A DNA stretch of 64,000 nt, taken from NCBI RefSeq assembly GCF_058153355.1, contig NZ_CM177019.1, one strand, 5' to 3'. Below, in pieces: positions 9,764 through 23,569 of the stretch. Below the pieces are notes generated by a model. The model saw only the letters and a list, made by a program, of their open reading frames with translations, was not told where the DNA came from and did not search any database. Each line of letters opens with the position of its first letter. Position 1 is the first letter of the stretch. Both the position numbers and the translations under genes were made by a program.

Positions 9764-10921
9764 TTATTTAAATAAGGGTTTAAGACCGCTCGGGGGTTGC
9801 TTCACCGATGACCAACCTCCCTTACCTAAGTTATAACGCAGCCATTCACCTTGTTGGGCGTGCTCTTTCCCAATTCCAGTCGCTTGTTGAGTGTAAAGCT
9901 GCCCGTCTGTTGATATAAACGTGTTAGTTAATCCCCAACTACCACCTGCTTCAAGTGAGTCGGTGAGATCCTCTGGCTTGAGATTAATCAACTCCCCTTC
10001 GCCCAGGGCGTTGGTTGTTACTTTATAAATTTGGTTCTTATATAAACCGGTATTCCGAACAAACAGATAAAAATATTCCGGATCAACTCCCGCCAGCGTT
10101 TCATAAACACAATCACTACCCGCTGGCGTTGCTTCTTGTTTGAGCCAGGACACAGTCTTCAAACCAATATTAAATGACGCACAACTGTGACTAATATCCT
10201 CCAACTTATAGTCATGCTCACCGCTTTTATCGCGATAAACCAACCGTTCGCCAGGCATCCAACGTTTAATCTGAAAAGTTTTGCGATCGGCGGGCAGTGG
10301 CTTGCCATTAACGATCACCTGCGAATTTGTCAGCACAACAAATTGCAGGGCGGAATCATGCCGCACGATTTGAAATCCATCGGCATGACCCAACCAGCGC
10401 CCTTTATGCCAGAGGCCATTTTTATCACGCAGTAAATTCCAGATGTCCGTCTCTTCCAGCGTTGACATATCCACCTGCTTATCACCGCTATTATCATCGG
10501 TACGCTGGCCGTCAAAATAGATACTGCGTTTATCGGCAGCGAAAGCGCCGAATGCCTGAAAACTGGCAGCGTCGACTTTAGGTTTACCGGGGGGATTTTT
10601 CAGGACTTTGCCTGCCCAAATAACAAAGCGTCCATCGGTGAGCCAGGAATGCTGGCAATCCCCCTTATCATCGCAATCGAACTTATCGGGATTAAAATCG
10701 GACAGTAACCGGCAATCTTGCTTATTAGCTAAATTGGCAATGCGCCAGAGGCGGGAAAAATTAACGTCTGGTAATTCGGAGAGGATCTCATCTTCTTTTC
10801 CCTTCTGTTCGGCAACGTAAACCGTGCCTTTATCATGCTGGCGGTAATAAAAATCCGCGCCCCAGGAAGGTAAAATGGAGAGAGGTAATGCGGCGATTAA
10901 TAACCAACTGCGCTTAACCAT
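9764..10921 (-). CDS. secreted repeat protein A, paralog of previous gene, DKNYY-like repeats
   Basis: Start trimmed to MVKRSWLLIAALPLSILPSWGA signal peptide (386 aa); the 438 aa track ORF would overlap the cycA 3' end and terminator; same conserved core as protein B. Confidence 0.6.
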   Translation of the reverse strand: MVKRSWLLIAALPLSILPSWGADFYYRQHDKGTVYVAEQKGKEDEILSELPDVNFSRLWRIANLANKQDCRLLSDFNPDKFDCDDKGDCQHSWLTDGRFVIWAGKVLKNPPGKPKVDAASFQAFGAFAADKRSIYFDGQRTDDNSGDKQVDMSTLEETDIWNLLRDKNGLWHKGRWLGHADGFQIVRHDSALQFVVLTNSQVIVNGKPLPADRKTFQIKRWMPGERLVYRDKSGEHDYKLEDISHSCASFNIGLKTVSWLKQEATPAGSDCVYETLAGVDPEYFYLFVRNTGLYKNQIYKVTTNALGEGELINLKPEDLTDSLEAGGSWGLTNTFISTDGQLYTQQATGIGKEHAQQGEWLRYNLGKGGWSSVKQPPSGLKPLFK

Positions 10922-11013
10922 AGTGAACTCTGCAACGAGTGGCAAAGATCCACGGTAAGCTCGCGCCTGAGGGCTGTCTATGATGGTAGATTTTTTTAGG
11001 AATATATAAAGAC

Positions 11014-11035
11014 AAAGGCACCCGCAGGTGCCTTT
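11014..11035 (-). terminator. cycA rho-independent terminator
   Basis: aaaggcacc / ggtgccttt stem with 4-nt loop, T-run on the minus strand immediately after. Confidence 0.55.
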
Positions 11036-11054
11036 CAGAGTTATAAACGCGGCA

Positions 11055-12458
11055 TTACTTCGCCATGCGTTTTTTACCAATAAACAACCAGCCCAACCCC
11101 AGCGCGATAAACCACAGCGGGGTAACTATCAGCGCCTGGCGAGTGTCATCTTCCAGTGTCAGCAGCACGACCACGAACACAAAGAACGCCATACATACCC
11201 AGCACATCAGCTTGCCGAGCGGCATCTTGTAGATAGACTTCTCATGCAGGTGCGGACGCTGTTTGCGATACACCAGGTATGAGCAAAGGATAATCGTCCA
11301 GACGAACATAAACAGAATCGCGGAAACAGTCGTGATCATCGTGAACGCGCCAATTACACTTGGATTCACATACAACATCACCACGCCGCCAAGCAGACAG
11401 ATACAAGAGAAGGTCAGCCCTTTCGCGGGTACGGCGCGCTTAGAAAGTTTAGCGAACGCTTTCGGCGCAACACCTTCCTGGGCCAGACCAAACAGCATAC
11501 GGCTGGTAGAGAAGACGCCGCTGTTAGCGGAAGACGCCGCAGAGGTCAGCACCACAAAGTTGATTACGCTGGCAGCCGCAGGCAAACCCACCAACACAAA
11601 CAATTCAACAAACGGGCTTTTCTCCGGGACTACTGAACTCCACGGCGTCACGGACATAATCACAATCAGCGCGAAGACGTAGAACATAATGATACGGATC
11701 GGAATGGAGTTAATCGCACGTGGCAGTGATTTCTCCGGATCTTTCGTTTCCGCAGCGGTTGTACCGACCAGCTCAATCCCCACGAAAGCGAAAACCGCTA
11801 TCTGGAATCCGGCAAAGAAGCCACTTAAACCTTTCGGGAACCAGCCGCCGTCATTCCACAAATGCGCGAATGACGCTTCCACACCGGTCGGTGACTGAAA
11901 GTGCATCGCCACCATGACCAGGCCGACGACAATCAGTGACACGATGGCGACAATTTTGATCATCGCAAACCAGAACTCCATCTCACCGAACATTTTCACG
12001 GTGGCGAGGTTAAGCGTCAGCAGCAGCACTATCACCGCCAGCGAGGCGACCCAGTCGGAGAGATCGGGGAACCAGAACTGAGCATAGGCAGTGATGGCCA
12101 CCACGTCCGCCATACCGGTAACCACCCAGCAGAACCAGTAGGTCCAGCCAGTGAAATATCCCGCCCATGGCCCCAGTAAATCGGAAGCGAAGTCACTAAA
12201 AGATTTGTATTCCAGATTCGAAAGCAGCAATTCCCCCATTGCCCGCATCACGAAAAAGAGCATAAAACCGATGATCATATAAACGAAGATGATCGACGGT
12301 CCGGCAAGGCTGATTGTTTTACCGGACCCCATAAACAACCCCGTACCAATGGCCCCACCAATGGCAATAAGCTGAATATGTCGGTTTGTGAGATTGCGCC
12401 GTAGCGACTGTTCAGCCGGAGCCTGATCATCGGCAACGACTTTTACCTGATCTACCAT
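11055..12458 (-). CDS. cycA: D-serine/D-alanine/glycine APC-family permease
   Basis: 467 aa polytopic amino-acid permease with typical N-terminal motif (HIQLIAIGGAIGTGLFMGSG). Confidence 0.92.
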   Translation of the reverse strand: MVDQVKVVADDQAPAEQSLRRNLTNRHIQLIAIGGAIGTGLFMGSGKTISLAGPSIIFVYMIIGFMLFFVMRAMGELLLSNLEYKSFSDFASDLLGPWAGYFTGWTYWFCWVVTGMADVVAITAYAQFWFPDLSDWVASLAVIVLLLTLNLATVKMFGEMEFWFAMIKIVAIVSLIVVGLVMVAMHFQSPTGVEASFAHLWNDGGWFPKGLSGFFAGFQIAVFAFVGIELVGTTAAETKDPEKSLPRAINSIPIRIIMFYVFALIVIMSVTPWSSVVPEKSPFVELFVLVGLPAAASVINFVVLTSAASSANSGVFSTSRMLFGLAQEGVAPKAFAKLSKRAVPAKGLTFSCICLLGGVVMLYVNPSVIGAFTMITTVSAILFMFVWTIILCSYLVYRKQRPHLHEKSIYKMPLGKLMCWVCMAFFVFVVVLLTLEDDTRQALIVTPLWFIALGLGWLFIGKKRMAK

Positions 12459-12766
12459 GTTTTTTTCTTCCTGTACCTGTCTGTGTTGTTCAGGCTCTGC
12501 GGCCTTTAGTCAGTCTATGATACGACGAATCTGTATCGGGACTCATCGATATTAGGTAACAATACGCGGGATGAATACTAAGATTTAGATCTAATGTTAA
12601 TTTTATGTTTAAAGTGAGTGTCATATCACGGTGATAACGCGAAACAGCTCACAAAAATACACGCTTACGTGGTCTTTGCAACACAAAATAGCGCCATTTG
12701 GCAAACTGAAGGGTTTATTGCTGAATGCCTGCTCCCCTCTGGCTCGAGGGGAACAGAATGCGCTGC

Positions 12767-13387
12767 TTAGAGGATTTCCAGCAGTTCGACTTCAAACACC
12801 AGGGTGCTGAACGGAGGGATGGACGCGCCTGCGCCACGCTCGCCATATGCCAGTTCCTGCGGGATAGTCAGTTCCCATTTAGAACCTACCGGCATCAGAG
12901 TCAGTGCTTCAATCCAGCCAGGGATCACGCCGTTAACCGGGAATTCAGCTGGCTCGCCACGGGCAACAGAGCTGTCAAACACAGTGCCGTCGATCAGTTT
13001 ACCGGTGTAATGAACACGAACGCGGTCAGTGCGTGCCGGAATTGCGCCTTCCCCCTGATTGATCACGCGGAATTGCAGGCCAGATTCGGTGCTATTCACA
13101 CCTTCTTTTTTGGCGTTTTCTTCCAGGTATTTCACACCTTCAGCAGCCATCGCCTGGAAACGCTGACGACGAACGGCATCGGCGCGTTCGTGGATTTCAC
13201 GCAGCGCGCGGTGCACCACATCAACCGGAACAGCCGGATGTTTGCCTTCCAGCGCATCGGCAATGCCTGCAACCAGTGCTTCTGGCAGCAGCCCTTCCAG
13301 GCCAGATTCACTCAGTTGTTGCCCTACCTGCAAACCAATGCCGTAGCTTGCTTGCGCTTCGATGGTGTCAAAAGTTGGGGTGGTCAT
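12767..13387 (-). CDS. fklB: FKBP-type peptidyl-prolyl cis-trans isomerase
   Basis: Start trimmed to MTTPTFDT (206 aa); FKBP domain ([25 protein letters not shown]). Confidence 0.92.
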
Positions 13388-13604
13388 CGTATTTCCTTTC
13401 TTAGGGTATAAAGTAGCGGGCAGCATATCAGCCACACTTCTTTGGGTAAAACTTTGTCGCGGGAATGATGACAAATCCCGGGGAAAAAGAAACAATAGCA
13501 ATATCCCGTATGAATATAATAAAGGCGGGTTTACCACGGACATCATAGCGTTAGCTTATTCATAGGCTATGATTGAGGAACAAGACGCGGAGCAGGAGGA
13601 AACC

Positions 13605-14243
13605 ATGCCCGGGCGCTTTGAACTAAAACCAACCCTGGAGAAAGTCTGGCACGCGCCGGACAATTTTCGCTTCATGGACCCGCTACCGCCGATGCATCGT
13701 CGGGGGATCATTATTGCCGCTATTGTATTGGTGGTCGGATTTCTACTCCCGTCTGATGATACGCCAAACGCGCCGGTGGTGACGCGTGAAGCACAGTTAG
13801 ATATTCAGTCGCAATCACAACCGCCGACAGAAGAACAGCTGCGGGCGCAATTAGTCACACCACAAAATGATCCTGATCAGGTGGCTCCGGTCGCTCCAGA
13901 ACCGATACAGGAAGGCCAACCGGAAGAGCAGCCGCAAACCTCGCAAGTGCAACCTTTCCAGCCAGATAGCGGAATTGACAATCAATGGCGCTCTTATCGT
14001 GTCGAACCCGGTAAAACAATGGCGCAGCTGTTCCGCGACCACGGACTGCCCGCTACCGATGTCTATGCAATGGCGCAGGTAGAAGGCGCGGATAAGCCAC
14101 TGAGTAATTTGCAAAATGGGCAGATGGTGAAAATCCGCCAGAACGCCAGCGGCGTGGTGACGGGCTTAACCATTGATACGGGAAATAATCAACAGGTCCT
14201 GTTTACCCGCCAGCCGGATGGCAGTTTTATTCGCGCGCGGTAG
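13605..14243 (+). CDS. ytfB: cell-division protein YtfB (OapA/LysM-like)
   Basis: Start trimmed to [10 protein letters not shown] (212 aa); one TM segment, Pro/Gln-rich linker, C-terminal OapA-like domain. Confidence 0.85.
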
Positions 14244-14874
14244 ATGAAGGGTCAACCAGAAGCCAGCTAAGGATCGTCTCTTTGATGACCTTACGCCTGG
14301 CTTCCAGTGCCTGCGGTGAAACCATACTGATGTGATAAACCAGGCCAAGCGTATGTTGGTTGATCAAATAATATCCTCCAAGAGCAGCAATATTAATATT
14401 CACCTGCAACGGGTCGATATCTGGCTTAAAAATATTGCGCCGTTTGCCTTCAGCTAATAATGACTCCATTAACTGTAAGTGTGCGTGGTTAATTTCTAAA
14501 AGGCGCTGTGATTTTGCATAATGCACCCCTTTACTCTGGTTTTCACTATGCACAATTTTTAAAAACCAGGGGTTAGCAATGTAATAATCCCAGGTGAAAT
14601 CGATAATTTTCTCAATGGCTTTTTGTGGCGGAAGACCTGAGAAATCAAGGGATTTTTCTTTTTGCCGAATATCATTCCAGGTATATTCCAGCACTTCGAT
14701 AAATAAATTTTCTTTATTACCAAAGTGATGATAAACCGTCTGTTTACTGCACTCCGCGGCCTTGACGATATTATCGACTCTGGCCCCTTCGTAACCATAT
14801 TCGGCAAATTCATTAACCGCACATAACAACAGCTTTTCCTTCAGGCTTTGTACGTTGCTGGTATCAAGATACAT
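14227..14874 (-). CDS. TetR-family transcriptional regulator, intact, at the K-12 ytfA position
   Basis: Start taken at MYLDTSNVQ (215 aa); TetR N-terminal HTH ([32 protein letters not shown]); divergent from the downstream operon; 3' end overlaps ytfB by 17 nt. Confidence 0.8.
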
Positions 14875-15085
14875 TCCGCTTCCCCACGTCTTCTTCGTGA
14901 TGACTATCTTAACCCGATTTGTTAGAAGCTCCACTAAAATGGCTAAAAACTCGCAATTTCATCGGGTTATCAAATGCTCTGTGATCATTATCGCATATCA
15001 ACCAACTAGATGGTTGATCTTTCTTGCCACACATTGCAAGCTAATCGTCACTTAAGGAAATAATATTCAAAAAGAGGGTTATTGT

Positions 15086-15877
15086 ATGAAGTCAACACGT
15101 CCTGTTGCTGTCATCACTGGAGCCGCACGTGGTATTGGAAAGGGCTGTGCACTGGAACTTGCGCGTGGCGGATTTAATCTGCTGATTAATGATCGTCCGG
15201 ATGCCGACAGCGTAGAAAAATTACATGCCACACAACAAGAATGTCTGGCGGAAGGCGTGGAAGTCATTTGCTTCCCTGCCGATGTCGGCGATCTCTCCTT
15301 GCATGAAGAGATGCTCGACGCGGCGCAAAACCAGTGGGGGCGTCTGGACTGCCTGCTCAATAACGCCGGGATTTCAGTGAAAAAACGCGGTGACCTCCTC
15401 GACCTCGAACCAGACAGCTTCGACCAAAACATTGCCATTAACACCCGTGCGCCGTTCTTCCTTGCTCAGGCATTCAGTAAGCGATTACTGGCACAGCCGA
15501 AACCGGAAGCAGAACTGCCGCACCGCTCGATTATTTTTGTCAGTTCCATAAACGCCATCATGCTGGCGATGAATCGCGGCGAATATACCATTGCCAAAAC
15601 TGCCGTCTCCGCCGCAGCTCGCCTGTTTGCCGCTCGCCTTTGCAATGAACAAATTGGCGTTTATGAAGTGCGCCCTGGCCTAATCAAAACCGATATGACC
15701 ATTCCGGCAACGGCTTATTACGACGAACTGATTGCTAAGGGGTTAGTGCCGTGGGGACGTTGGGGTTATCCGGCTGATATTGCCTCAACGGTCCGCGCGA
15801 TGGCGGAAGGCAAACTGATTTACACCTGTGGTCAGGCGGTCGCCATCGACGGCGGCTTAAGTATGCCGCGCTTCTGA
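15086..15877 (+). CDS. short-chain dehydrogenase/reductase (SDR)
   Basis: 263 aa; TGAARGIG cofactor motif, NNAG, catalytic YxxxK (YTIAK); AGAGGG RBS. Confidence 0.85.
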   Translation: MKSTRPVAVITGAARGIGKGCALELARGGFNLLINDRPDADSVEKLHATQQECLAEGVEVICFPADVGDLSLHEEMLDAAQNQWGRLDCLLNNAGISVKKRGDLLDLEPDSFDQNIAINTRAPFFLAQAFSKRLLAQPKPEAELPHRSIIFVSSINAIMLAMNRGEYTIAKTAVSAAARLFAARLCNEQIGVYEVRPGLIKTDMTIPATAYYDELIAKGLVPWGRWGYPADIASTVRAMAEGKLIYTCGQAVAIDGGLSMPRF

Positions 15878-15886
15878 GGCTGAATC

Positions 15887-16729
15887 ATGAGAGATCTGTT
15901 ACAACGCCCGGATTTATTCAGTATCAATACTGCGACACTGGGCTATAAAACACCGCTACCTGCCATTATTGATGCCTGCGCCGCACGCGGTATTGGCGCG
16001 ATTGCCCCCTGGCGCAGGGAGTTACAGGGTGAAGATCTCCAACAAATCGCCCGCCAGCTTGCTGCCAGTAACATGAGCGTTTCCGGTTTGTGCCGTAGCA
16101 CCTATTACACCGCGCCGACGCTGACGGAACGCAAACTGGCGATTGATGATAACCGCCGGGCGCTGGACGACGCCGCTGTACTGAACGCCGCCTGTTATAT
16201 GCAGGTGGTTGGCGGTCTGCCAATGGGAACAAAAGATCTGTACGAAGCGCGGGAACAGGTGAAACAAGGGATTCGCCAGTTGCTGCCACATTCGAAAGAT
16301 GTCGGCGTACCAATTGCGCTGGAGCCGCTACACCCGATGACCGCCGCCGATCGCTCTTGCCTGTGCACGTTACGTCAGGCGCTGGACTGGTGTGATGAAC
16401 TCGATCCCGATGGGGAGTTTGGCCTCGGCGTGGCGGTGGATGTTTATCACGTCTGGTGGGACCCGGATCTCGCCAGTCAGATCCTGCGTGCCGGAAAGCG
16501 CATCCTCGCGTTTCATGTTTCCGACTGGCTGGTGCCAACCACCGATTTAGTCAATGACCGGGGAATGCCGGGAGATGGCGTAATCAATATTCCGTCTATT
16601 CGTCGCCAGGTAGAAAATGCCGGATTTAACGGTGCTATTGAACTGGAAATATTCTCACCGTACTGGTGGCAAAAAGATATTAACAGCACACTGGATATTA
16701 GCGTCGATCGCATCGCGCATTATTGCTAA
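15887..16729 (+). CDS. sugar phosphate isomerase/epimerase-like TIM-barrel protein
   Basis: 280 aa; overall resemblance to xylose-isomerase-like TIM-barrel enzymes (IALEPLHP, AFHVSD); 9-nt gap to upstream gene. Confidence 0.6.
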   Translation: MRDLLQRPDLFSINTATLGYKTPLPAIIDACAARGIGAIAPWRRELQGEDLQQIARQLAASNMSVSGLCRSTYYTAPTLTERKLAIDDNRRALDDAAVLNAACYMQVVGGLPMGTKDLYEAREQVKQGIRQLLPHSKDVGVPIALEPLHPMTAADRSCLCTLRQALDWCDELDPDGEFGLGVAVDVYHVWWDPDLASQILRAGKRILAFHVSDWLVPTTDLVNDRGMPGDGVINIPSIRRQVENAGFNGAIELEIFSPYWWQKDINSTLDISVDRIAHYC

Positions 16730-16732
16730 GGA

Positions 16733-17515
16733 ATGATCATGAGTGACCAACCCGTTCTGTTCAGCAGAGCGGCGGCTTCCTGCCGCCTGACATTGAACCG
16801 TGAAGATAAATGTCATGCTATTAATGAAGAAATGATCGAATCTCTCGACCATTATTTAAATGAAATTGAAAACGACACCACATTACGATTAGTCGAATTA
16901 ACGGCAACCGGCGATAAATTCTTTTGTGCAGGCGGCGATATTAAATCGTGGTCAGCCTATTCGCCATTAGATATGGGCAGAAAATGGATTAAACGCGGCA
17001 ATGACGTTTTTAATCGCCTGCGCAACTTACCCCAATTAACCGTTGCGAATCTCAACGGTCATACCATCGGCGGCGGTATTGAACTTGCCTTGTGCTGTGA
17101 TATTCGTATTGCCCGCCCCGGCGCGAAATTCTCTAACCCGGAAGTGATGCTCGGCATGGTACCTGGCTGGATGGGCATTGAACGCGTGCTTAATCAGGTC
17201 GGTCCGGTGGTCGGTCGCCAGATGCTGATGCTGGGTAAACGCCTGACGGCGCAGGAAGCTCAGGCGGCGAATTTAATTGATGAAGTGGTAGAAAAAGAAC
17301 AGGTGGAAAGCTGGATGGCGAATCAGTTAGCGCAACTGGAAAAATGTGGTCCGGTAGCGCTGGCACATATTAAGCAACTGATTCTGGCGCTGGAAAATAA
17401 ACACGCCGATTACCCGCACCAGTTACTGGCTGGATTAATGTCCGCCACTCAGGATTGCCAGCAGGCGACGCGCGCATTTGCCGAAAAAGCCAGCGTGAGC
17501 TTCCATAATCAATAA
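16733..17515 (+). CDS. enoyl-CoA hydratase/isomerase (crotonase family)
   Basis: 260 aa; FFCAGGDIKSW and GHTIGGGIELALCCDIRIA crotonase-fold motifs. Confidence 0.8.
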   Translation: MIMSDQPVLFSRAAASCRLTLNREDKCHAINEEMIESLDHYLNEIENDTTLRLVELTATGDKFFCAGGDIKSWSAYSPLDMGRKWIKRGNDVFNRLRNLPQLTVANLNGHTIGGGIELALCCDIRIARPGAKFSNPEVMLGMVPGWMGIERVLNQVGPVVGRQMLMLGKRLTAQEAQAANLIDEVVEKEQVESWMANQLAQLEKCGPVALAHIKQLILALENKHADYPHQLLAGLMSATQDCQQATRAFAEKASVSFHNQ

Positions 17516-17524
17516 GGAAATTGT

Positions 17525-19066
17525 ATGCGTAAGATAACAACCGCCGAGACACTGGCGGCGCAAATTCAGGACGGCGCAACCATTGCCATTAGCGGTAATG
17601 GCGGTGGCATGGTGGAAGCGGACCATATTCTGGCTGCTATTGAAGCGCGTTTCCTGCAAACCGGACACCCGCGCGATCTGACATTAATCCACTCACTGGG
17701 CATTGGCGATCGCGACTGCAAAGGCACTAACCGCTTCGCTCATGCAGATATGCTCAAACGCATCATTGCCGGACATTTTACCTGGTCGCCCAAGATGCAG
17801 GATCTGGTGAAAAACAATGCTATTGAAGCCTACTGCTTCCCTGGTGGCGTAATTCAGGCACTGCTGCGGGAGATCGGTGCCGGACGTCCAGGGCTTTTTA
17901 CCCACGTTGGGCTGGGATCGTTTGTTGATCCGCGCAACGGCGGCGGTAAGTCGAACGCCAGCACCACTGAGGATCTGGTAGAACTGATTGAAATCGACGG
18001 TGAAACCAAACTTCGTTATCGCCCTTTCAAAGTGGACTACGCGATTTTGCGTGGCACTTATGCCGATCCGCGTGGCAACGTCAGCCTCGAAGAAGAGGCG
18101 ATTGATATGGATAGCTATTCCATGGCGCTGGCAGCACACAACAGCGGCGGCAAAGTGTTCGTACAGGTGCGCGATGTGCTGGAAGCTGGTGCCATTGAAC
18201 CACGCCGGGTCAAATTACCGGGCATTCTGGTTGATGGCATCGTTGAACACCGCGAACAACCGCAAACCTATCTTGGCGGTTACGACCTGACCATCAGCGG
18301 TCAGCATCGCCGTCTAAGTTCTAACGACGCTATTGAACTGGTTAGTCATCCGGTGCGCCGCCTGATTGCCCGTCGGGCAGCACGCGAACTGGTGGCTGGC
18401 GCTTCAACCAACTTTGGCTTTGGTATTCCGGGCGGTATTCCAGGAGTAGCGCTGCGCGAAGGCGTGCCTTATCAAAGTTTATGGCTGAGCGTAGAACAGG
18501 GCGTACATAACGGCATGATGCTGGATGATGCTCTGTTCGGCTGCGCCCGTAACGCCGATGCCATTATTCCATCACTCGATCAATTCGAATTCTACAGTGG
18601 CGGAGGGATCGATATCACCTTCCTCGGCATGGGAGAGATGGATCAGTACGGTAACGTCAACGTCTCCCATCTCAATGGCAATCTCATTGGCCCCGGCGGA
18701 TTTCTCGAAATTGCGCAAAACGCCCGTAAAGTGGTGTTCTGCGGCACGTTCGACGCCAAAGGTAGCAAGATTGATGTAACACCAGATGGCTTGCATATTG
18801 CCCAGTCAGGTCAAATCCCTAAACTGGTTACCCAGGTGGAAAAAATCACTTTTAGCGCCGCCTACGCACAGCAAAGCGGTCAGGAAGTGTTGTATATCAC
18901 TGAACGTGCAATATTCCAGTTAACGGCAGAAGGCGTTGAATTAATTGAAATCGCACCAGGTGTGGAGATTGAGCGCGACATTCTGCCATATATGGCTTTC
19001 CGTCCAATTATCAATCAGCCACGCCTGATGGAAAGTAGCCTGTTTACGCCGATGGAGGATGCATGA
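17525..19066 (+). CDS. family I CoA-transferase, fused A/B subunits (YdiF-like)
   Basis: 513 aa; two-domain CoA-transferase architecture; stop overlaps next start (ATGA). Confidence 0.7.
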   Translation: MRKITTAETLAAQIQDGATIAISGNGGGMVEADHILAAIEARFLQTGHPRDLTLIHSLGIGDRDCKGTNRFAHADMLKRIIAGHFTWSPKMQDLVKNNAIEAYCFPGGVIQALLREIGAGRPGLFTHVGLGSFVDPRNGGGKSNASTTEDLVELIEIDGETKLRYRPFKVDYAILRGTYADPRGNVSLEEEAIDMDSYSMALAAHNSGGKVFVQVRDVLEAGAIEPRRVKLPGILVDGIVEHREQPQTYLGGYDLTISGQHRRLSSNDAIELVSHPVRRLIARRAARELVAGASTNFGFGIPGGIPGVALREGVPYQSLWLSVEQGVHNGMMLDDALFGCARNADAIIPSLDQFEFYSGGGIDITFLGMGEMDQYGNVNVSHLNGNLIGPGGFLEIAQNARKVVFCGTFDAKGSKIDVTPDGLHIAQSGQIPKLVTQVEKITFSAAYAQQSGQEVLYITERAIFQLTAEGVELIEIAPGVEIERDILPYMAFRPIINQPRLMESSLFTPMEDA

Positions 19067-21135
19067 GTCAGCTTGATGACACCCTCCTTGATGCGCTGAC
19101 GCACGTCACTTTCCCGAAGGGTTTTGTGTCAGCAGAGCCAGCGTCAATTGTCACGGTTGAAGATGTCGATTACCCGATCTGGCAAGTTGATGCGCTAGTC
19201 GTTGGTAGCGGCGCGGCAGGGCTGCGCGCAGCGGTTGAACTTAAGCGCCGCCAGCAAAATGTGCTGATCGCCTCCGCCGGGTTATATATGGGGACATCGG
19301 CATGTTCTGGTTCCGATAAACAGACGCTGTTTACCGCCGCTACCGCGGGCAACGGCGATAACTTCGCCAAACTGGCGGAAGCACTGGCGAGCGGTGGGGC
19401 GATGGATCACGACACCGCTTATGTCGAAGCGGTAGGTTCTCTGCACACTCTTGGCGGGTTGCAATATCTTGGTCTGGAATTACCGGAAGATCGCTATGGC
19501 GCAATTCTTCGTTATCAAACCGACCATGACGAAGCCGGGCGAGCAACCTCGTGTGGGCCGCGTACTTCTCGCCTAATGGTGAAAGTATTGCTGGAGGAAG
19601 TGCAGCGTCTTGCCATACCACTACTGACCAGTGCAACGGTGATTAAGCTCCTGCATCAGCACGGAGAGAATGGCGAAGATCGCGTTGCGGGGGCTATTCT
19701 CGCAACCGGTTCCCGCGCCTATAACCCCTGGGGGCTGGCTATTGTGACGGCGCCCAATGTGGTACTGGCAACGGGCGGACCGGGCGAGCTTTATCGCGAC
19801 AGTGTTTATCCACATAAATGCTTCGGCTCGCTGGGACTGGCACTGGAAGAAGGTTTGACGCTAACCAATCTGACCGAAAGCCAGTTTGGTATAGGCACGC
19901 CGCGCAGCACGTTTCCGTGGAATTTGTCCGGCACCTATGTACAGGTGATCCCATATATCTATTCCGTGGATGCCGGGGGCAACGAGTATAACTTCCTCGC
20001 AGATTACTATCGCACCACCCAGGAGCTGGCTTCAAACATCTTCCGTAAAGGCTATCAGTGGCCGTTTCACGCCACACGAGTGATGGATTTTGGCTCCAGC
20101 TTGTTAGATATGGCAGTAGCGCAAGAGCAGCAATCAGGACGTCAGGTATTTATGGATTTCAATCGCAATCCTGAACCTGTGCCGGGTGACCTGCCGTTCT
20201 CATTAGATCGACTGGACGACGACGTTCGCGCGTATCTGGAAAATAACGACGCTCTGGCACCATCGCCCATCGAACGACTGCAACGAATGAATCCGCTGTC
20301 TATCTCGCTGTATAAGATGCACGGTTACGATCTCACCACGCAGCCATTGCAGTTTGCCATGAATAATCAGCATATAAATGGCGGCATTGAAGTGGATATC
20401 TGGGGGCAAACCTCCCTGCCCGGATGTTTCGCCGTGGGGGAAGTTGCTGGCACACACGGCGTCACTCGCCCTGGTGGTGCGGCATTGAATGCCGGGCAGG
20501 TTTTTGCTGTTCGTCTGGCACGTTTTATTGGTTGCACGCAAAAACGTAATATTGATGGAGATATAGCACAGCTGGTAGCTCCGGCACTGGCTTCTATAAG
20601 AGAGATCATTACTCAGGCGCACGATAACGGGACCGGGATGCCGTTGTCGGTTGTGAGGGAAAAAATTCAGGCACGAATGTCTGACTACGCGGGATTTATT
20701 TGCCATGCCGATAAAGTCCGACGCGCCACTCGTGATGCCCTGCTATTGAACGAATTTGTGCAACGGCATGGATTGGCAATCAAACATGTGGGTGAAGTTG
20801 CCGAGCTATTTATGTGGCGGCATATGGCGCTGACTTCTGCCGCGGTATTAACACAATTAACGCATTATATTGATGCTGGTGGTGGTAGCCGTGGGGCGCG
20901 TATGGTTATTGATCCACAAGGCAAATGCCTACCACAAACTCGTCGCGGCGCAAAAGAAGAATGGCGTTTTCGCTCTGAACTCGCTGAAGACAAAAATCAC
21001 AAATTAACAATTCAATATTCGCAAGGTTCTTTTATTACCGAAGTAAAGTCTTTACGTATGCAACCGTGTATTAACGGTATTTACTTTGAAAAAAACTGGC
21101 CAGACTTTTTAAAGGGAGACATTTACACACAGTAA
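19063..21135 (+). CDS. FAD-dependent oxidoreductase, fumarate reductase/succinate dehydrogenase flavoprotein-like
   Basis: 690 aa; N-terminal dinucleotide fold VVGSGAAGLRAAVEL; second FAD-contact motif GCFAVGEVAGTHG; long C-terminal extension. Confidence 0.7.
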   Translation: MSQLDDTLLDALTHVTFPKGFVSAEPASIVTVEDVDYPIWQVDALVVGSGAAGLRAAVELKRRQQNVLIASAGLYMGTSACSGSDKQTLFTAATAGNGDNFAKLAEALASGGAMDHDTAYVEAVGSLHTLGGLQYLGLELPEDRYGAILRYQTDHDEAGRATSCGPRTSRLMVKVLLEEVQRLAIPLLTSATVIKLLHQHGENGEDRVAGAILATGSRAYNPWGLAIVTAPNVVLATGGPGELYRDSVYPHKCFGSLGLALEEGLTLTNLTESQFGIGTPRSTFPWNLSGTYVQVIPYIYSVDAGGNEYNFLADYYRTTQELASNIFRKGYQWPFHATRVMDFGSSLLDMAVAQEQQSGRQVFMDFNRNPEPVPGDLPFSLDRLDDDVRAYLENNDALAPSPIERLQRMNPLSISLYKMHGYDLTTQPLQFAMNNQHINGGIEVDIWGQTSLPGCFAVGEVAGTHGVTRPGGAALNAGQVFAVRLARFIGCTQKRNIDGDIAQLVAPALASIREIITQAHDNGTGMPLSVVREKIQARMSDYAGFICHADKVRRATRDALLLNEFVQRHGLAIKHVGEVAELFMWRHMALTSAAVLTQLTHYIDAGGGSRGARMVIDPQGKCLPQTRRGAKEEWRFRSELAEDKNHKLTIQYSQGSFITEVKSLRMQPCINGIYFEKNWPDFLKGDIYTQ

Positions 21136-21227
21136 TTTTCAATATTTACTCTGTACCTGATTTTTATTGCCTATTACATGGAAATACCAACAACCAGGGT
21201 TTATTAATATAATTAAAAGGTTTAAAA

Positions 21228-22505
21228 ATGAATAAAATAAAGAATTATCGATGGCATATGATTGCCCTCGTATGCTTTATCACTGTAATCAATTATCTGG
21301 ACAGAACGGCGTTAGGTATTGCGGCTCCAACGATTATGGAGACAACCGGAATAACCAAAGAACAATATTCATGGATTGTCAGTGCATTCCAGTTGGCCTA
21401 TACATTGGGGCAACCGGTAATGGGCTTCTTTATTGATACCGTGGGTCTGAAGTTAAGTTTTGCGATATGTGCCGCAATCTGGGGCCTGGCGACAATGGGG
21501 CATGCCTTGACAGGAACATGGTCAGGTCTGGCATTTATGCGCGCCCTGATGGGTTTCAGCGAAGCATCGGCAATTCCTGCGGGTGTAAAAACCGCATCAA
21601 CATGGTTCCCGGCAAAAGAGCGTGGCGTGGCGACAGGTGTTTTCAATATGGGCACCTCACTCGGCGCGATGCTTGCTCCACCGTTGATTGCCTGGTGCAT
21701 TATGTTTCATAGCTGGCAATTTGCGTTTATTGTCTCAGGTAGCCTTGCTTTACTCGCGGCTTTATTTTGGTTCTTTTGTTATAAAGATCCAAAAGATGCT
21801 AAACGCCTTTCTGATGAAGAGCGCCACTATATTGAGTCTGGGCAAGAACAGCATCTTAAAACAGATAAGAAAGAAAAAACGTCAATCAAGCATATCCTCA
21901 GCCAACGTAATTTCTGGGGGATTGGCATCGCGCGTTTTCTCGCTGACCCGGCATGGGGAACCATTAACTTCTGGGTACCGATTTTCTTCGTCGAAACGCT
22001 GCATTTTAGCCTGAAAGAAATTGCCATGTTCGTCTGGCTGCCTTTCCTGCTGGGCGATCTCGGCTGTTTAGCCAGTGGTTTTGTCGCGAAGTTCTTCCAC
22101 GATCGCGGCGTGAGTTTAATTAACTCACGAAGAATTACCTTCACTATTGCAGCCGTCATTATGATGACGATTGGTCTGGTGAGTATTGTCGAAAATCCCT
22201 ACATCGCCGTATTACTGATTAGCATTGGCGCATTCTCGCATCAATGTCTTTCTACTGTAGCAGCAACTCTGGGCGGTGACCTATTCAAAAAAGACGAAGT
22301 AGCTACCGCAGTGGGTATGGCAGGAGCCTGTGCGTGGAGCGGTCAGTTGATTTTCAACCTGTTCATCGGGGCATTCGTTCACATTATCGGCTTCGCGCCG
22401 TTCTTTATTGCCCTGGCTTTCTTTGACATTATTGGTGCTATTGCGTTGTGGACGCTTATCAAAGTTAAAGATGAAGAACCACAAGTACAGTTAGCTACCC
22501 ACTAA
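21228..22505 (+). CDS. MFS transporter, anion:cation symporter type (hexuronate/galactonate-like)
   Basis: 425 aa, about 12 TM; N-terminal motifs (NYLDRTALGIAAP) typical of ExuT/DgoT/GudP-like acid-sugar permeases. Confidence 0.7.
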   Translation: MNKIKNYRWHMIALVCFITVINYLDRTALGIAAPTIMETTGITKEQYSWIVSAFQLAYTLGQPVMGFFIDTVGLKLSFAICAAIWGLATMGHALTGTWSGLAFMRALMGFSEASAIPAGVKTASTWFPAKERGVATGVFNMGTSLGAMLAPPLIAWCIMFHSWQFAFIVSGSLALLAALFWFFCYKDPKDAKRLSDEERHYIESGQEQHLKTDKKEKTSIKHILSQRNFWGIGIARFLADPAWGTINFWVPIFFVETLHFSLKEIAMFVWLPFLLGDLGCLASGFVAKFFHDRGVSLINSRRITFTIAAVIMMTIGLVSIVENPYIAVLLISIGAFSHQCLSTVAATLGGDLFKKDEVATAVGMAGACAWSGQLIFNLFIGAFVHIIGFAPFFIALAFFDIIGAIALWTLIKVKDEEPQVQLATH

Positions 22506-22774
22506 TTATTTTAAATAAAAACGCTATAATTGAGGTTATGGCGTTTTTAAAGAAGCTTGAGTTATCGAACCTCGCTTACCAACGCGTTGTCAGTCATCTC
22601 CCCCCTCCCTGGTGCATCGTTATATCCGTGATGAGCGATTTTTGATATTAATATCTTTCACCATCCGCTATTTTCACCACTTCAGAAAACAAACTTATTT
22701 TTATTAATATCAATTCTTTTTCTTTGAACATTCAACTGCGATATTTGTAAAAATATTAAACAGGCAACAATAAA

Positions 22775-23569
22775 ATGACATTACCAACAACTATTTATTC
22801 ATTCCCCGCATATTTACCTCGTTTTTCGTCCACCGACAAACCAGCAAAACTAAAATTTCATCAATACGCACGCGCTACATTACTGTCAAATCGTGGAAGA
22901 GATCATAATTGCGATGGCAGACGTACTGTTGAGATCCACAAACTAGATCTCTCAGACTGGCAAGCATTCAATAAGCTAGCGACGAGGTGTAATACTTACG
23001 ATGGAATAACAATGAATGGTGATAATTCTTTTGGATGGAACCATGAAGCTACATTAGATAATATTCACGCCCAGAAATACAATAAAGCTTACGCGGGTGC
23101 GCGGTTAACCGCAGAACTGAAATATTTATTGCAAGATGTCGAATCCTTCGAACCCAACAGTAAATACACAATACACGAAGTGGTTTTGGGACCTGGTTAT
23201 GGTACTCCAGACTATACCGGCCAAACGATAGGATACGTTGTAACCCTTCCTGCCCAAATGCCTAATTGCTGGTCATCTGAACTACCAACAATCGATCTTT
23301 ATATCGACCAACTTCGCACTGTTACAGGCGTTTCTAATGCCCTCGGATTCATCATTGCTGCATTGCTAAACGCGTATTCTGATTTACCCCATGATTTGAA
23401 AATTGGTCTACGTTCCTTATCAAATTCAGCCGCAATCTACTCGGGTTTAGGTTTCGAGCGAGTGCCGCAGGACCGAGACATAAGGAGTGATCGTATGCAT
23501 CTAACGCCAGCAAACCATCCTGACTTATGGACACAAGAGAATGGTGAATGGATCTACTTGCGAAATTAA
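22775..23569 (+). CDS. yjfZ: uncharacterized protein YjfZ
   Basis: 264 aa ORF at the yjfZ position; AT-rich upstream leader. Confidence 0.75.
   Translation: MTLPTTIYSFPAYLPRFSSTDKPAKLKFHQYARATLLSNRGRDHNCDGRRTVEIHKLDLSDWQAFNKLATRCNTYDGITMNGDNSFGWNHEATLDNIHAQKYNKAYAGARLTAELKYLLQDVESFEPNSKYTIHEVVLGPGYGTPDYTGQTIGYVVTLPAQMPNCWSSELPTIDLYIDQLRTVTGVSNALGFIIAALLNAYSDLPHDLKIGLRSLSNSAAIYSGLGFERVPQDRDIRSDRMHLTPANHPDLWTQENGEWIYLRN

Follow-up and report, generated by a model that had tools for sequence, protein, structure and literature searches.

Variable ytfB-rplI locus of Escherichia coli carries a putative operon for the catabolism of a uronate-like sugar acid

Introduction

Many strains of Escherichia coli carry, between ytfB and rplI, a six-gene operon that is absent from K-12 and that faces a divergent gene for a TetR-family regulator. 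Which compound does this operon serve? We addressed this question for the copy found in a 64,000-nucleotide (nt) stretch of contig NZ_CM177019.1 (NCBI RefSeq assembly GCF_058153355.1), which is referred to below as the window; all coordinates are positions in it, and its list of open reading frames (ORFs) was made by a program. The six genes encode a short-chain dehydrogenase/reductase (SDR), a TIM-barrel enzyme, a crotonase, a CoA-transferase, a flavoprotein and a permease of the major facilitator superfamily (MFS). The analysis described here suggests that they probably form a catabolic operon for a uronate-like sugar acid. A fuller reading, in which the operon imports and degrades a sugar acid resembling a hexuronate, is repressed by the TetR protein, stands under catabolite control and follows the CoA-dependent scheme proposed below, is a real but tentative possibility.

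A literature search found no characterisation of the operon. The only mention that it returned is in the table of a 2010 survey, where genes c5298-c5303 of strain CFT073, labelled '3-ketoacid metabolism', make up one of 19 gene sets that this strain has and K-12 lacks. According to this survey, the set is present in 12 of 19 other strains (F11, 536, UTI89, E2348, B171, E24377A, E22, B7A, E110019, 53638, HS and SMS-3-5) and is missing from O42, from the two O157:H7 strains and from the Shigella strains. Its absence from K-12 is the likely reason why the operon has never been studied.

Results

Two exchangeable transporters point to uronate-like substrates

The operon occurs in E. coli in two forms, which differ only in the transporter cassette. 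In the MFS form, to which the window belongs, the permease gene stands last, with yjfZ beyond it (1669 genomes, Nissle 1917 among them), whereas in the other form the genes dctQMP, encoding a tripartite ATP-independent periplasmic (TRAP) transporter, occupy the place of both the MFS gene and yjfZ (1446 genomes).

The permease of the window shares 47% identity with K-12 ExuT (E 6e-151, 425 bits), compared with 27-28% (142-152 bits) for DgoT, GarP and LgoT, and the Klebsiella orthologue is likewise closest to ExuT. The protein, previously described as a sugar-acid-type permease, can thus be defined more sharply as an ExuT paralogue. The model TIGR00893 scored 315 bits on it. By these comparisons the permease is a member of the ExuT subgroup of the anion:cation symporter (ACS) permeases, with a transport specificity that is predicted from this placement.

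The binding protein of the TRAP form gave a comparable picture. Its best 14 matches in the PDB (E 8e-71 to 7e-51) belong to one structural-genomics series and include 4OVR, 4X8R, 4N8Y, 4N15, 4N91, 4MHF/4MIJ, 4P1L and 4X04; two papers describe bound glucuronate or galacturonate in 4X8R, 4N8Y, 4N91 and 4MHF. The TRAP binding proteins of two metagenome contigs with related loci (L010 and L011) resemble the same uronate group. That of another related locus (L019) resembles 4NX1/4OVP, whose ligands we take to be mannuronate and taluronate, and that of a further one (L060) resembles 7BBR, a binding protein with bound 2-keto-3-deoxygluconate (KDG). Two unrelated transporters, both apparently uronate-like, have been swapped at one locus, which is the strongest available clue to the class of substrate.

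Gene neighbourhoods of related enzymes

A scan with an alignment of the flavoprotein, limited to one genome per species, yielded 80 loci, and for 77 of these the neighbours within 7 kb were mapped. The most frequent were (i) Gfo/Idh/MocA oxidoreductases (27 of the 77 loci), (ii) SDRs of the same type as in the operon (26 loci, in several phyla), (iii) LacI regulators (24), (iv) GMC oxidoreductases (22), (v) KdgK-like kinases (20) and (vi) sugar ABC transporters (19). The TIM-barrel type of the operon and an Eda-like aldolase were each found at 12 loci, and a YdiF-like transferase at seven.

The nearest relatives outside E. coli (57-59% identity), from Brenneria, Pseudescherichia, Mangrovibacter and Escherichia sp. 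ESNIH1, show the arrangement TetR-SDR-(Gfo)-TIM-MFS-flavoprotein and contain no CoA enzymes. Metagenome contigs have TetR-SDR-flavoprotein-TIM-TRAP, and the trio without a CoA enzyme was also found in Verrucomicrobia. Since the SDR, the TIM barrel and the flavoprotein stay together in the absence of CoA enzymes, this conserved core must act on free acids, and the operon is not simply a beta-oxidation set.

A second scan, of metagenomes with an alignment of the TIM barrel, gave 49 usable loci with two architectures: Gfo-DUF993-TIM, and a TetR gene with CoA-transferase / acyl-CoA dehydrogenase (ACAD)-SDR-DUF993-TIM / enoyl-CoA hydratase (ECH), the last sometimes followed by an ACS-type MFS gene. 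DUF993 (PF06187) was present at 25 of the 49 loci. Its structural model (pLDDT 85) matches the orphan structure SMc04132 and, next, the dihydrodipicolinate synthase (DHDPS)/N-acetylneuraminate lyase family, and has an invariant Lys on strand 6; this fold is that of 2-keto-3-deoxy-acid aldolases and dehydratases. In Sinorhizobium, SMc04132 (DUF993) lies two locus tags from SMc04130, the orphan TIM-barrel structure that is nearest to the enzyme of the operon.

Taken together, transporters of the uronate type, neighbours resembling KdgK, Eda and DHDPS, and a binding protein of the KDG type point to 2-keto-3-deoxy sugar-acid metabolism fed by uronate-like acids.

Two further observations were made in these surveys. 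The Gfo/Idh/MocA-DUF993-TIM trio is very common in soil metagenomes (loci L104-L177), and two of its members are represented by the orphan crystal structures of SMc04130 and SMc04132 (PDB 3JU2 and 4DNH); the literature search found no paper on DUF993 or on this trio. In Phycisphaerae and Planctomycetota the flavoprotein gene is part of another, conserved string (e.g. locus L077, 4145-13194), comprising an approximately 880-aa fusion protein resembling old yellow enzyme (OYE) and GltD-like NAD(P)H enzymes, an SDR, an Eda-like aldolase, the flavoprotein and an MtnA-like (methylthioribose-1-phosphate isomerase-like) protein, sometimes with an unannotated protein of about 510 aa between the aldolase and the flavoprotein. 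The OYE-like/GltD-like reductase might be the electron partner of the flavoprotein in these bacteria.

SDR and TIM-barrel enzyme

The SDR scored 420 bits with NF009386 (cutoff 250). The name of this subfamily, '3-ketoacyl-ACP reductase', does not indicate the real substrate. In the PDB the protein comes nearest to 4DA9 and 4ONE, two structural-genomics entries that lack an annotation, and KduD models gave 101-117 bits against cutoffs of 339-430, a level typical of SDRs in general.

The TIM-barrel protein matched PF01261 (E 2.6e-37) and the PDB entries 3QC0 and 3JU2 (SMc04130) with E 1e-85, both without an assigned function. Its nearest named relatives, IolI, ketose 3-epimerases, IolO and OtnI, all gave weak matches. 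Residues E146, D185, H210 and E252 are invariant in nine homologues (38-92% identity) and, judged by their position in the usual E-D-H-E pattern of the fold, we infer that they are metal ligands.

CoA-transferase and crotonase

The CoA-transferase is closely related to YdiF (PDB 2AHU, E 6e-115). The A-subunit model covers residues 4-244 and the B-subunit model residues 278-481, as expected of a fused alpha/beta enzyme, and E324 (LSVEQG) aligns with YdiF E333 (LTVETG), which we take to be the catalytic Glu that forms the glutamyl-CoA thioester. Many NCBIfam hydratase models matched the crotonase (E 1e-30 to 1e-44), those for short-chain enoyl-CoA hydratases remaining under their cutoffs. The protein contains both catalytic Glu motifs (GGGIELAL and NPEVMLG), at what we assume to be the hydratase positions E144 (in GGGxEL) and E164 (in PExxxG) of rat ECH.

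The two genes recur beside different versions of the locus. In Pseudovibrio the order SDR-TIM-ECH-CoA-transferase is kept and the transferase is 64% identical; in Tropicimonas a family-III CoA-transferase, instead of family I, stands beside the crotonase and the flavoprotein; in a betaproteobacterium, genes for CoA-transferase, ECH, TRAP, MaoC, ACAD, electron-transfer flavoprotein (ETF), TIM barrel and flavoprotein are linked in this order. The crotonase and CoA-transferase are thus a recurring add-on pair to the SDR/TIM/flavoprotein core.

Two unusually long E. coli proteins, P0009 (1078 aa) and P0028 (1043 aa), match both the flavoprotein and the CoA-transferase domain PF01144. Such fusions, if they are not assembly errors, presumably arose by a frameshift or read-through at the 4-nt overlap of the two genes (19063-19066).

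Flavoprotein

The flavoprotein has the fold of SdhA, FrdA and NadB, with an FAD-binding Rossmann domain, a capping domain and a helical C-terminal domain, and its C-terminal extension runs past the end of the NadB alignment. The PDB search named it only at the superfamily level, and its neighbours in AFDB50 bear generic names. At E<=1e-30 this unnamed family comprises 413 clusters (50% identity), with the invariant motifs SGSDKQT, NLTESQFG, WNLSGTY and KGYQWP.

In a MAFFT alignment with E. coli NadB and FrdA, H437 and R469, both invariant in the family, fall on the carboxylate-binding pair (NadB H351/R386, FrdA H355/R390). The HPT position reads FPW or FRW, and the Arg of RGEG (NadB R290, FrdA R287) is replaced by Asp within an S-x-D-x-x-G motif. 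The loss of the HPT His and of the capping-domain catalytic Arg rules out a true fumarate reductase or aspartate oxidase. No genes for an Fe-S subunit or membrane anchor were found in the operon or its flanks, and the operon of E. coli encodes no partner protein of the FMN-binding, cytochrome, Fe-S or ETF kind. From these features we read the protein as a probable monocarboxylate-binding dehydrogenase or reductase that acts next to a carboxyl group, and not as a fumarate reductase. Action on CoA esters as a general rule is made unlikely by the clusters that lack any CoA enzyme.

Full-length relatives (30-40% identity) occur in Enterocloster bolteae, Clostridium citroniae, Victivallis, Coriobacterium, Treponema and Halanaerobium, and in the Asgard archaeon Promethearchaeum syntrophicum. 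Their presence in strict anaerobes indicates that the family is not tied to oxygen as the electron acceptor.

Regulation

The regulator gene and the operon are separated by a divergent promoter region of 211 bp. In an otherwise diverged alignment of this region from E. coli, Klebsiella and Salmonella, two conserved blocks stand out, a palindrome that lies some 68 nt before the start codon of the SDR gene and, directly upstream of it, a CRP-like site, TGTGATCATTATCGCA. The window, E. coli O121, Klebsiella and Salmonella share the core of the palindrome, CAACCAACTAGATGGTTGA, without a difference despite the diverged spacer around it, and variant copies are found in Brenneria and Escherichia sp. 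ESNIH1. The CRP-like site is kept between the divergent genes of E. coli, Klebsiella, Salmonella and Brenneria, the Brenneria copy matching TGTGA-N6-TCACA perfectly.

The TetR protein gave only weak matches to NCBIfam equivalog models (FadR-Bac, AcuR and others), all far under cutoff. It has the characteristics of a local repressor, i.e. an N-terminal helix-turn-helix, a divergent target operon and a palindrome in the shared promoter, whose role as operator is putative. We infer that TetR probably represses at the palindrome and that the CRP-like site may confer catabolite control. Inspection of the promoter by eye revealed no operator of the ExuR/UxuR or KdgR type, and the half-site of the palindrome differs from these. 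A simple scan for sigma-70 promoters and terminators returned fewer sites than in shuffled sequence.

Distribution and evolution of the locus

At least 80% of the region is present, with its gene order kept, in 3096 of 5426 complete E. coli genomes (about 57%). Klebsiella oxytoca/grimontii and Salmonella enterica also have this cluster at the ytfB-rplI position, with an unchanged gene order and protein identities of 77-94%. In K-12 only a 402-nt pseudogene of the TetR C-terminus (ytfA) lies between ytfB and yjfZ, in agreement with an earlier note on this DNA, which named ytfA as a degraded remnant of a regulator and took the operon for an accessory metabolic island. The latter view was not upheld. 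Because the cluster is syntenic in Klebsiella and Salmonella, the locus is ancestral in enterobacteria and was lost by deletion in K-12; its presence is variable, yet it is not an imported island. Acquisition as a genomic island is ruled out by this synteny and by the ordinary GC profile.

Comparison of the window with the O121 allele gave dN/dS values of 0.02-0.08 and dS values of 0.16-0.45; the low dN/dS combined with high dS shows that the genes are functional and old. The cluster (14227-20900) has approximately 93% DNA identity to most E. coli, compared with 95-99% for a neighbouring 8-kb core segment. The identity of this segment excludes an origin of the window from another Escherichia species, so that the divergence is allelic. 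It suggests that the diverged enzyme alleles represent an ancient polymorphism or an import from another Escherichia lineage. The bovine strain EC42405 (France) carries the allele of the window at 98% across the whole region.

The exchange of transporters has left a sharp junction. DNA homology to genomes of the TRAP form ends at query position 6677, i.e. position 20903 of the window, inside the flavoprotein gene. Between the two forms, the flavoprotein is 94-100% identical over alignment columns 51-600 and 82% over the first 50, and identity drops to 64% and then 44% over the last 90 or so. The last 77 or so codons of the flavoprotein gene travel with the transporter cassette (20903-23569 in the window, with yjfZ included; 10677-13783 in the TRAP counterpart, locus L002). 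The gene yjfZ (DUF2686) was found only with the MFS form, and Klebsiella and Salmonella have an EamA/DMT transporter gene at its position. The G+C content falls to 0.37 on either side of the MFS gene (21000-21499 and 22500-22999), against about 0.50-0.56 within the enzyme genes, and these dips are consistent with cassette boundaries. The swap of an MFS permease for a TRAP system, joined to the other genes within the last enzyme gene, is a clear case of modular transporter replacement within one species.

Organization of the locus

The features of the locus are listed in Table 1. The earlier note had described a six-gene operon with an intact divergent TetR regulator, and this is borne out by the ORFs, the flanks and the same gene order elsewhere. 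Its ORF coordinates were reproduced exactly, as were the spacers of 9, 3, 9, -4 and 92 nt, and homology searches against NCBIfam, Pfam and PDB sequences showed all seven of its family assignments to be right.

Table 1. Features of the operon, its promoter region and its flanks (positions in the 64,000-nt window)
Feature	Position	Strand	Basis or remarks
ytfB	13569-14243		Flank on the TetR side
TetR/AcrR-family regulator	14227-14874	-	TetR_N and TetR_C_29 in orthologues; 215 aa; divergent from operon
CRP-like site TGTGATCATTATCGCA	14980-14995		Resemblance to consensus TGTGA-N6-TCACA
22-bp palindrome ATCAACCAACT/AGATGGTTGAT	14997-15018		Candidate TetR operator; inverted-repeat search
SDR, PRK12745 subfamily	15086-15877	+	NF009386
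Xylose-isomerase-like TIM-barrel enzyme, putatively metal-dependent	15887-16729	+	PF01261
Crotonase-family enoyl-CoA hydratase/dehydratase	16733-17515	+	NCBIfam and PDB searches; Glu motifs
Fused (alpha+beta) family-I CoA-transferase, YdiF/propionate CoA-transferase paralogue	17525-19066	+	PDB 2AHU
Soluble 690-aa FAD_binding_2 (PF00890) flavoprotein, L-aspartate oxidase/SdhA/FrdA superfamily	19063-21135	+	Pfam and PDB searches
Exchangeable transporter cassette	20903-22770	+	Last ~77 flavoprotein codons and MFS gene
ACS-family MFS permease, ExuT paralogue	21228-22505	+	TIGR00893; ExuT comparison
yjfZ (DUF2686)	22775-23569		Flank beyond the MFS gene; rplI next

Some gene boundaries require comment. 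The program-made ORF of TetR extends to a GTG at 14934, whereas its RefSeq homologues (648 nt) start at the ATG equivalent to 14874; the 3' end of this gene overlaps ytfB convergently by 17 nt. The crotonase start in the RefSeq annotation is at 16739, six bases past that given in Table 1. The program-made fklB ORF (12767-13546 on the - strand) has 259 aa, compared with the annotated gene of 206 aa, and a 228-aa ORF antisense across fklB (12725-13411 on the + strand) is almost certainly spurious.

Discussion

Proposed pathway

According to the pathway that we propose, the substrate would be taken up by the ExuT paralogue or, in strains with the alternative cassette, by the TRAP system with its uronate-type binding protein, and may differ from, or add to, the compounds handled by ExuT and UxaC. 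The YdiF-like transferase would load CoA onto the carboxyl group of the sugar acid (C6 of a uronate), thereby acidifying the C5-H, and the crotonase would take away the proton at the alpha carbon and the hydroxyl at the beta carbon, which in a uronate are C5-H and C4-OH, giving the enol of a 4-deoxy-5-keto-uronate. The transferase could then hand the CoA to the next substrate molecule, so that the pair would operate as a CoA-cycling dehydratase releasing a 2-keto-3-deoxy-type acid. The TIM barrel, as an aldose-ketose isomerase, and the SDR, as a reductase, would lead from there to KDG, in parallel to KduI and KduD, and the core enzymes KdgK and Eda would complete its breakdown. The flavoprotein might act on a free acid beside the carboxylate, by alpha-hydroxy or alpha,beta dehydrogenation, and so deliver the same class of keto acid from a second substrate, e.g. 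a C5 epimer, a deoxy acid or a 2-hydroxy-3-deoxy acid; the acyl-CoA dehydrogenase of the soil clusters could do likewise.

Transferase-crotonase pairs that are not accompanied by a ligase, thiolase or dehydrogenase, and that function as a CoA-recycling (de)hydratase of a free acid, are known from carnitine (CaiB/CaiD) and acrylate (AcuN/AcuK) metabolism. The conversion of a uronate to 5-keto-4-deoxyuronate is in itself an established reaction, catalysed by unrelated dehydratases (PMC6353982). The specific order of steps proposed here, from CoA-dehydratase to isomerase to reductase, is conceivable but doubtful.

Several points weigh against a uronate pathway of this kind. KduI and KduD of E. 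coli already carry out the same conversion, so the TIM barrel and the SDR would be redundant. Uronates exist in solution mostly as pyranoses, with the C5 oxygen in the ring, which complicates chemistry at C5. The best PDB match of the crotonase, 5ZAI (E 3.5e-40), is a 3-hydroxypropionyl-CoA dehydratase that acts on a C3 acyl-CoA, and the flavoprotein, though the most conserved partner of the SDR and the TIM barrel, has a role that the scheme defines only loosely. As to the transporters, the similarity of the TRAP binding protein (~1e-60 to 1e-71) is at the family level and no proof of ligand, and the SDR-TIM-flavoprotein trio of Brenneria is joined to a PcaK-like permease of the aromatic-acid type. 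Finally, the soil clusters contain the E. coli gene set with an AcrC-like ACAD and DUF993 replacing the flavoprotein, a substitution that suits a beta-oxidation-like pathway at least as well.

Alternative readings

Such a beta-oxidation-like or 3-oxoacid pathway, in which a deoxy sugar acid or a short hydroxy acid would be degraded from its carboxyl end, is the main rival, albeit an unlikely one. The transferase would activate the substrate, the flavoprotein would take the place of an acyl-CoA dehydrogenase, the crotonase would hydrate, the FabG-like SDR would oxidise the 3-hydroxyacyl-CoA, and either a housekeeping thiolase or the transferase itself would complete the sequence. The gene set covers four of the five beta-oxidation functions, and the relationship of the crotonase to 3-hydroxypropionyl-CoA dehydratase fits, as do the soil clusters, with their AcrC-like ACAD in place of the flavoprotein, the ETF and MaoC hydratase genes of locus L019 and the label given in the 2010 survey. 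The transferase is of the Pct/YdiF type, like Anaerostipes OxcT of the oxcT-ecdH-acaD operon (PMC8355322), and an SDR, a Pct-like transferase and MFS transporters also stand together in the Klebsiella deoxyribonate cluster (PMC6365646). A classical beta-oxidation operon would look different, however, since neither a thiolase nor an acyl-CoA dehydrogenase is encoded within 14227-22505, and a ligase and a glycerate kinase are also missing from the cluster. The association of the SDR, TIM barrel and flavoprotein without any CoA enzyme, in Brenneria and the Pseudescherichia group, in Verrucomicrobia and on metagenome contigs, speaks for free acids or sugars; the transporters are of the uronate type and not of the short-acid type; and flavoproteins of the NadB/SdhA type use free carboxylates and are not known to act on thioesters.

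Two other readings are less likely. It is improbable that the operon forms an anaerobic electron sink like the cai system, in which CoA activation and dehydration by the crotonase would be followed by reduction of the double bond by the flavoprotein, the deoxy product being excreted or processed. The inventory is that of cai (transporter, CoA-transferase, crotonase and flavoprotein), the flavoprotein shares its fold with the fumarate/urocanate reductase superfamily, strict anaerobes often have members of its family (Enterocloster, Victivallis, Halanaerobium, Coriobacterium), and AcrC/CaiA-like dehydrogenases with ETF occur in related clusters. The flavoprotein nevertheless lacks the Arg that protonates the substrate in fumarate reductases, the FMN-binding, cytochrome, Fe-S and ETF partners are missing from the E. 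coli operon, the frequent KdgK and Eda neighbours favour assimilation over excretion, and control of the CRP type suits a carbon source. A role in the metabolism of carbocyclic hydroxy acids of the quinate/shikimate type seems more improbable still. The SDR and TIM barrel would then be a dehydrogenase and a dehydratase or isomerase, the flavoprotein would act on a ring enoate, and the last step would be a CoA-dependent dehydration as in the conversion of shikimate to cyclohexanecarboxylate. This agrees with the PcaK/aromatic-acid-type permease of the Brenneria version, with the inosose isomerase IolI as the nearest named relative of the TIM barrel, with the resemblance of the Gfo/Idh/MocA partners to IolG and with the scores of related ACADs on cyclohexanecarboxyl-CoA dehydrogenase models; moreover, ydiF of K-12 lies near ydiB and aroD, and dehydroshikimate dehydratases have the PF01261 fold. 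Against it, both E. coli transporters point to uronates, and the KdgK, Eda, DUF993 (DHDPS-like) and KDG-type binding proteins of relatives favour open-chain 2-keto-3-deoxy acids. The TIM barrel shows no similarity to dehydratases of the AsbF/QuiC type at E<=0.01, and the literature search linked E. coli to no such hydroaromatic route. Inositol, 2-ketogluconate (Kgu-like), L-gulonate/L-xylulose and glucosaminate routes were also considered; each fits a subset of the neighbours, and none explains the uronate-type transporters together with the CoA pair.

If the uronate-like reading is taken further, the E. coli genes could represent a large, unstudied network with a fourth, CoA-dependent bacterial uronate route, in which the CoA-transferase and crotonase would form a thioester-assisted dehydratase and the NadB-like subfamily would comprise sugar-acid dehydrogenases. 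We consider this broader proposal fairly unlikely. Were it true, the network would link SDRs of the PRK12745 type, TIM barrels of the SMc04130 type, DUF993, Gfo/Idh/MocA proteins and KdgK/Eda in soil, marine and gut bacteria, and it might handle L-iduronate, guluronate, mannuronate or deoxy sugar acids, which lack a known monomer pathway. If confirmed, dehydration of a sugar acid with the help of CoA would provide a new enzymatic way to bring about a reaction that is otherwise left to dehydratases of the enolase, IlvD or UxuA type.

More than half of the sequenced E. coli, including Nissle 1917 and the uropathogen CFT073, carry the operon under strong purifying selection. Knowledge of its substrate would reveal a further nutrient niche by which commensal and pathogenic lineages differ from the laboratory strain, and would give a function to the flavoprotein family, to SDRs of the PRK12745 type, to a TIM-barrel family that has three orphan crystal structures and, by association, to DUF993.

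Comparison with known systems

The closest parallel in substrate is the hexuronate system of E. coli. The permease is 47% identical to ExuT, the TRAP protein falls among glucuronate and galacturonate binders, the relatives have KdgK-like and Eda-like genes, and KDG, the proposed product of the operon, is the hub of the known pathways (PMC6353982). In contrast, none of the operon enzymes is homologous to UxaC, UxaB, UxuA or KduI, and the regulator is of the TetR and not of the ExuR/UxuR type. No operon protein matched the NCBIfam models for UxaC/UxuB/UxuA, Udh/Gci/KdgD or KduI/KduD to cutoff. The isomerase, oxidative, fungal reductive and lyase/DEHU routes are covered in a 2019 review of hexuronate metabolism, which nowhere mentions CoA and contains no flavoprotein (PMC6353982).

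The earlier note had found no pathway that it could name for the combination of a sugar-acid permease, CoA chemistry and a reductase-like flavoprotein. It still holds that no characterised operon was matched, but sugar-acid catabolism with CoA chemistry does have a precedent, as Klebsiella michiganensis catabolises deoxyribonate through acyl-CoA intermediates (cluster BWI76_RS23695-23730 of strain M5al; Price et al. 2019, PMC6365646). Both are enterobacterial loci, and the M5al cluster also encodes a FabG-like SDR, an enzyme resembling propionate CoA-transferase and MFS transporters. It differs in containing a CoA synthetase, a thiolase, a glycerate kinase and a lactonase, in lying at another locus and in having a substrate established by fitness data; the crotonase, TIM barrel and NadB-like flavoprotein of the operon are absent from it.

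In its overall logic the operon resembles the carnitine genes caiTABCDE, which combine a transporter, a CoA-recycling transferase, a crotonase acting as beta-hydroxyacyl-CoA dehydratase and a flavoprotein. In the carnitine system the transferase (CaiB) is of family III, and CaiA is an acyl-CoA dehydrogenase that is fed by FixABCX, whereas the transferase of the operon belongs to family I and its flavoprotein has the NadB/SdhA fold and no electron-transfer partner; the class of substrate also differs. The oxcT-ecdH-acaD operon of Anaerostipes, which converts 3-oxopropionate to propionate (Bui et al. 2021, PMC8355322), similarly unites a Pct-type transferase, an enoyl-CoA hydratase and a dehydrogenase acting at the acyl-CoA level downstream of a sugar-like substrate. 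This module requires the full upstream iol pathway and an Acr/ETF reductase, neither of which is found in the E. coli operon, and, unlike its genes, the SDR type of the operon co-occurs with the TIM barrel and flavoprotein where there are no CoA enzymes.

Among single proteins, YdiF, an E. coli acetate/short-chain acyl-CoA transferase (2AHU), has the same fused alpha/beta family-I structure, with the catalytic Glu aligned, but is a paralogue at another locus with other neighbours. The flavoprotein shares only 21-22% identity with NadB and SdhA/FrdA, from which it is set apart by the replaced HPT His and RGEG Arg, its own motifs and the lack of an Fe-S subunit. Its proteins all come from familiar superfamilies, so that the operon is no categorical novelty and will be no major surprise to the specialist; the way in which the genes are combined, the alterations in the flavoprotein subfamily and a probable step assisted by CoA nevertheless make it likely that it represents a new variant of sugar-acid catabolism, and thus a solid, testable lead in a tractable organism.

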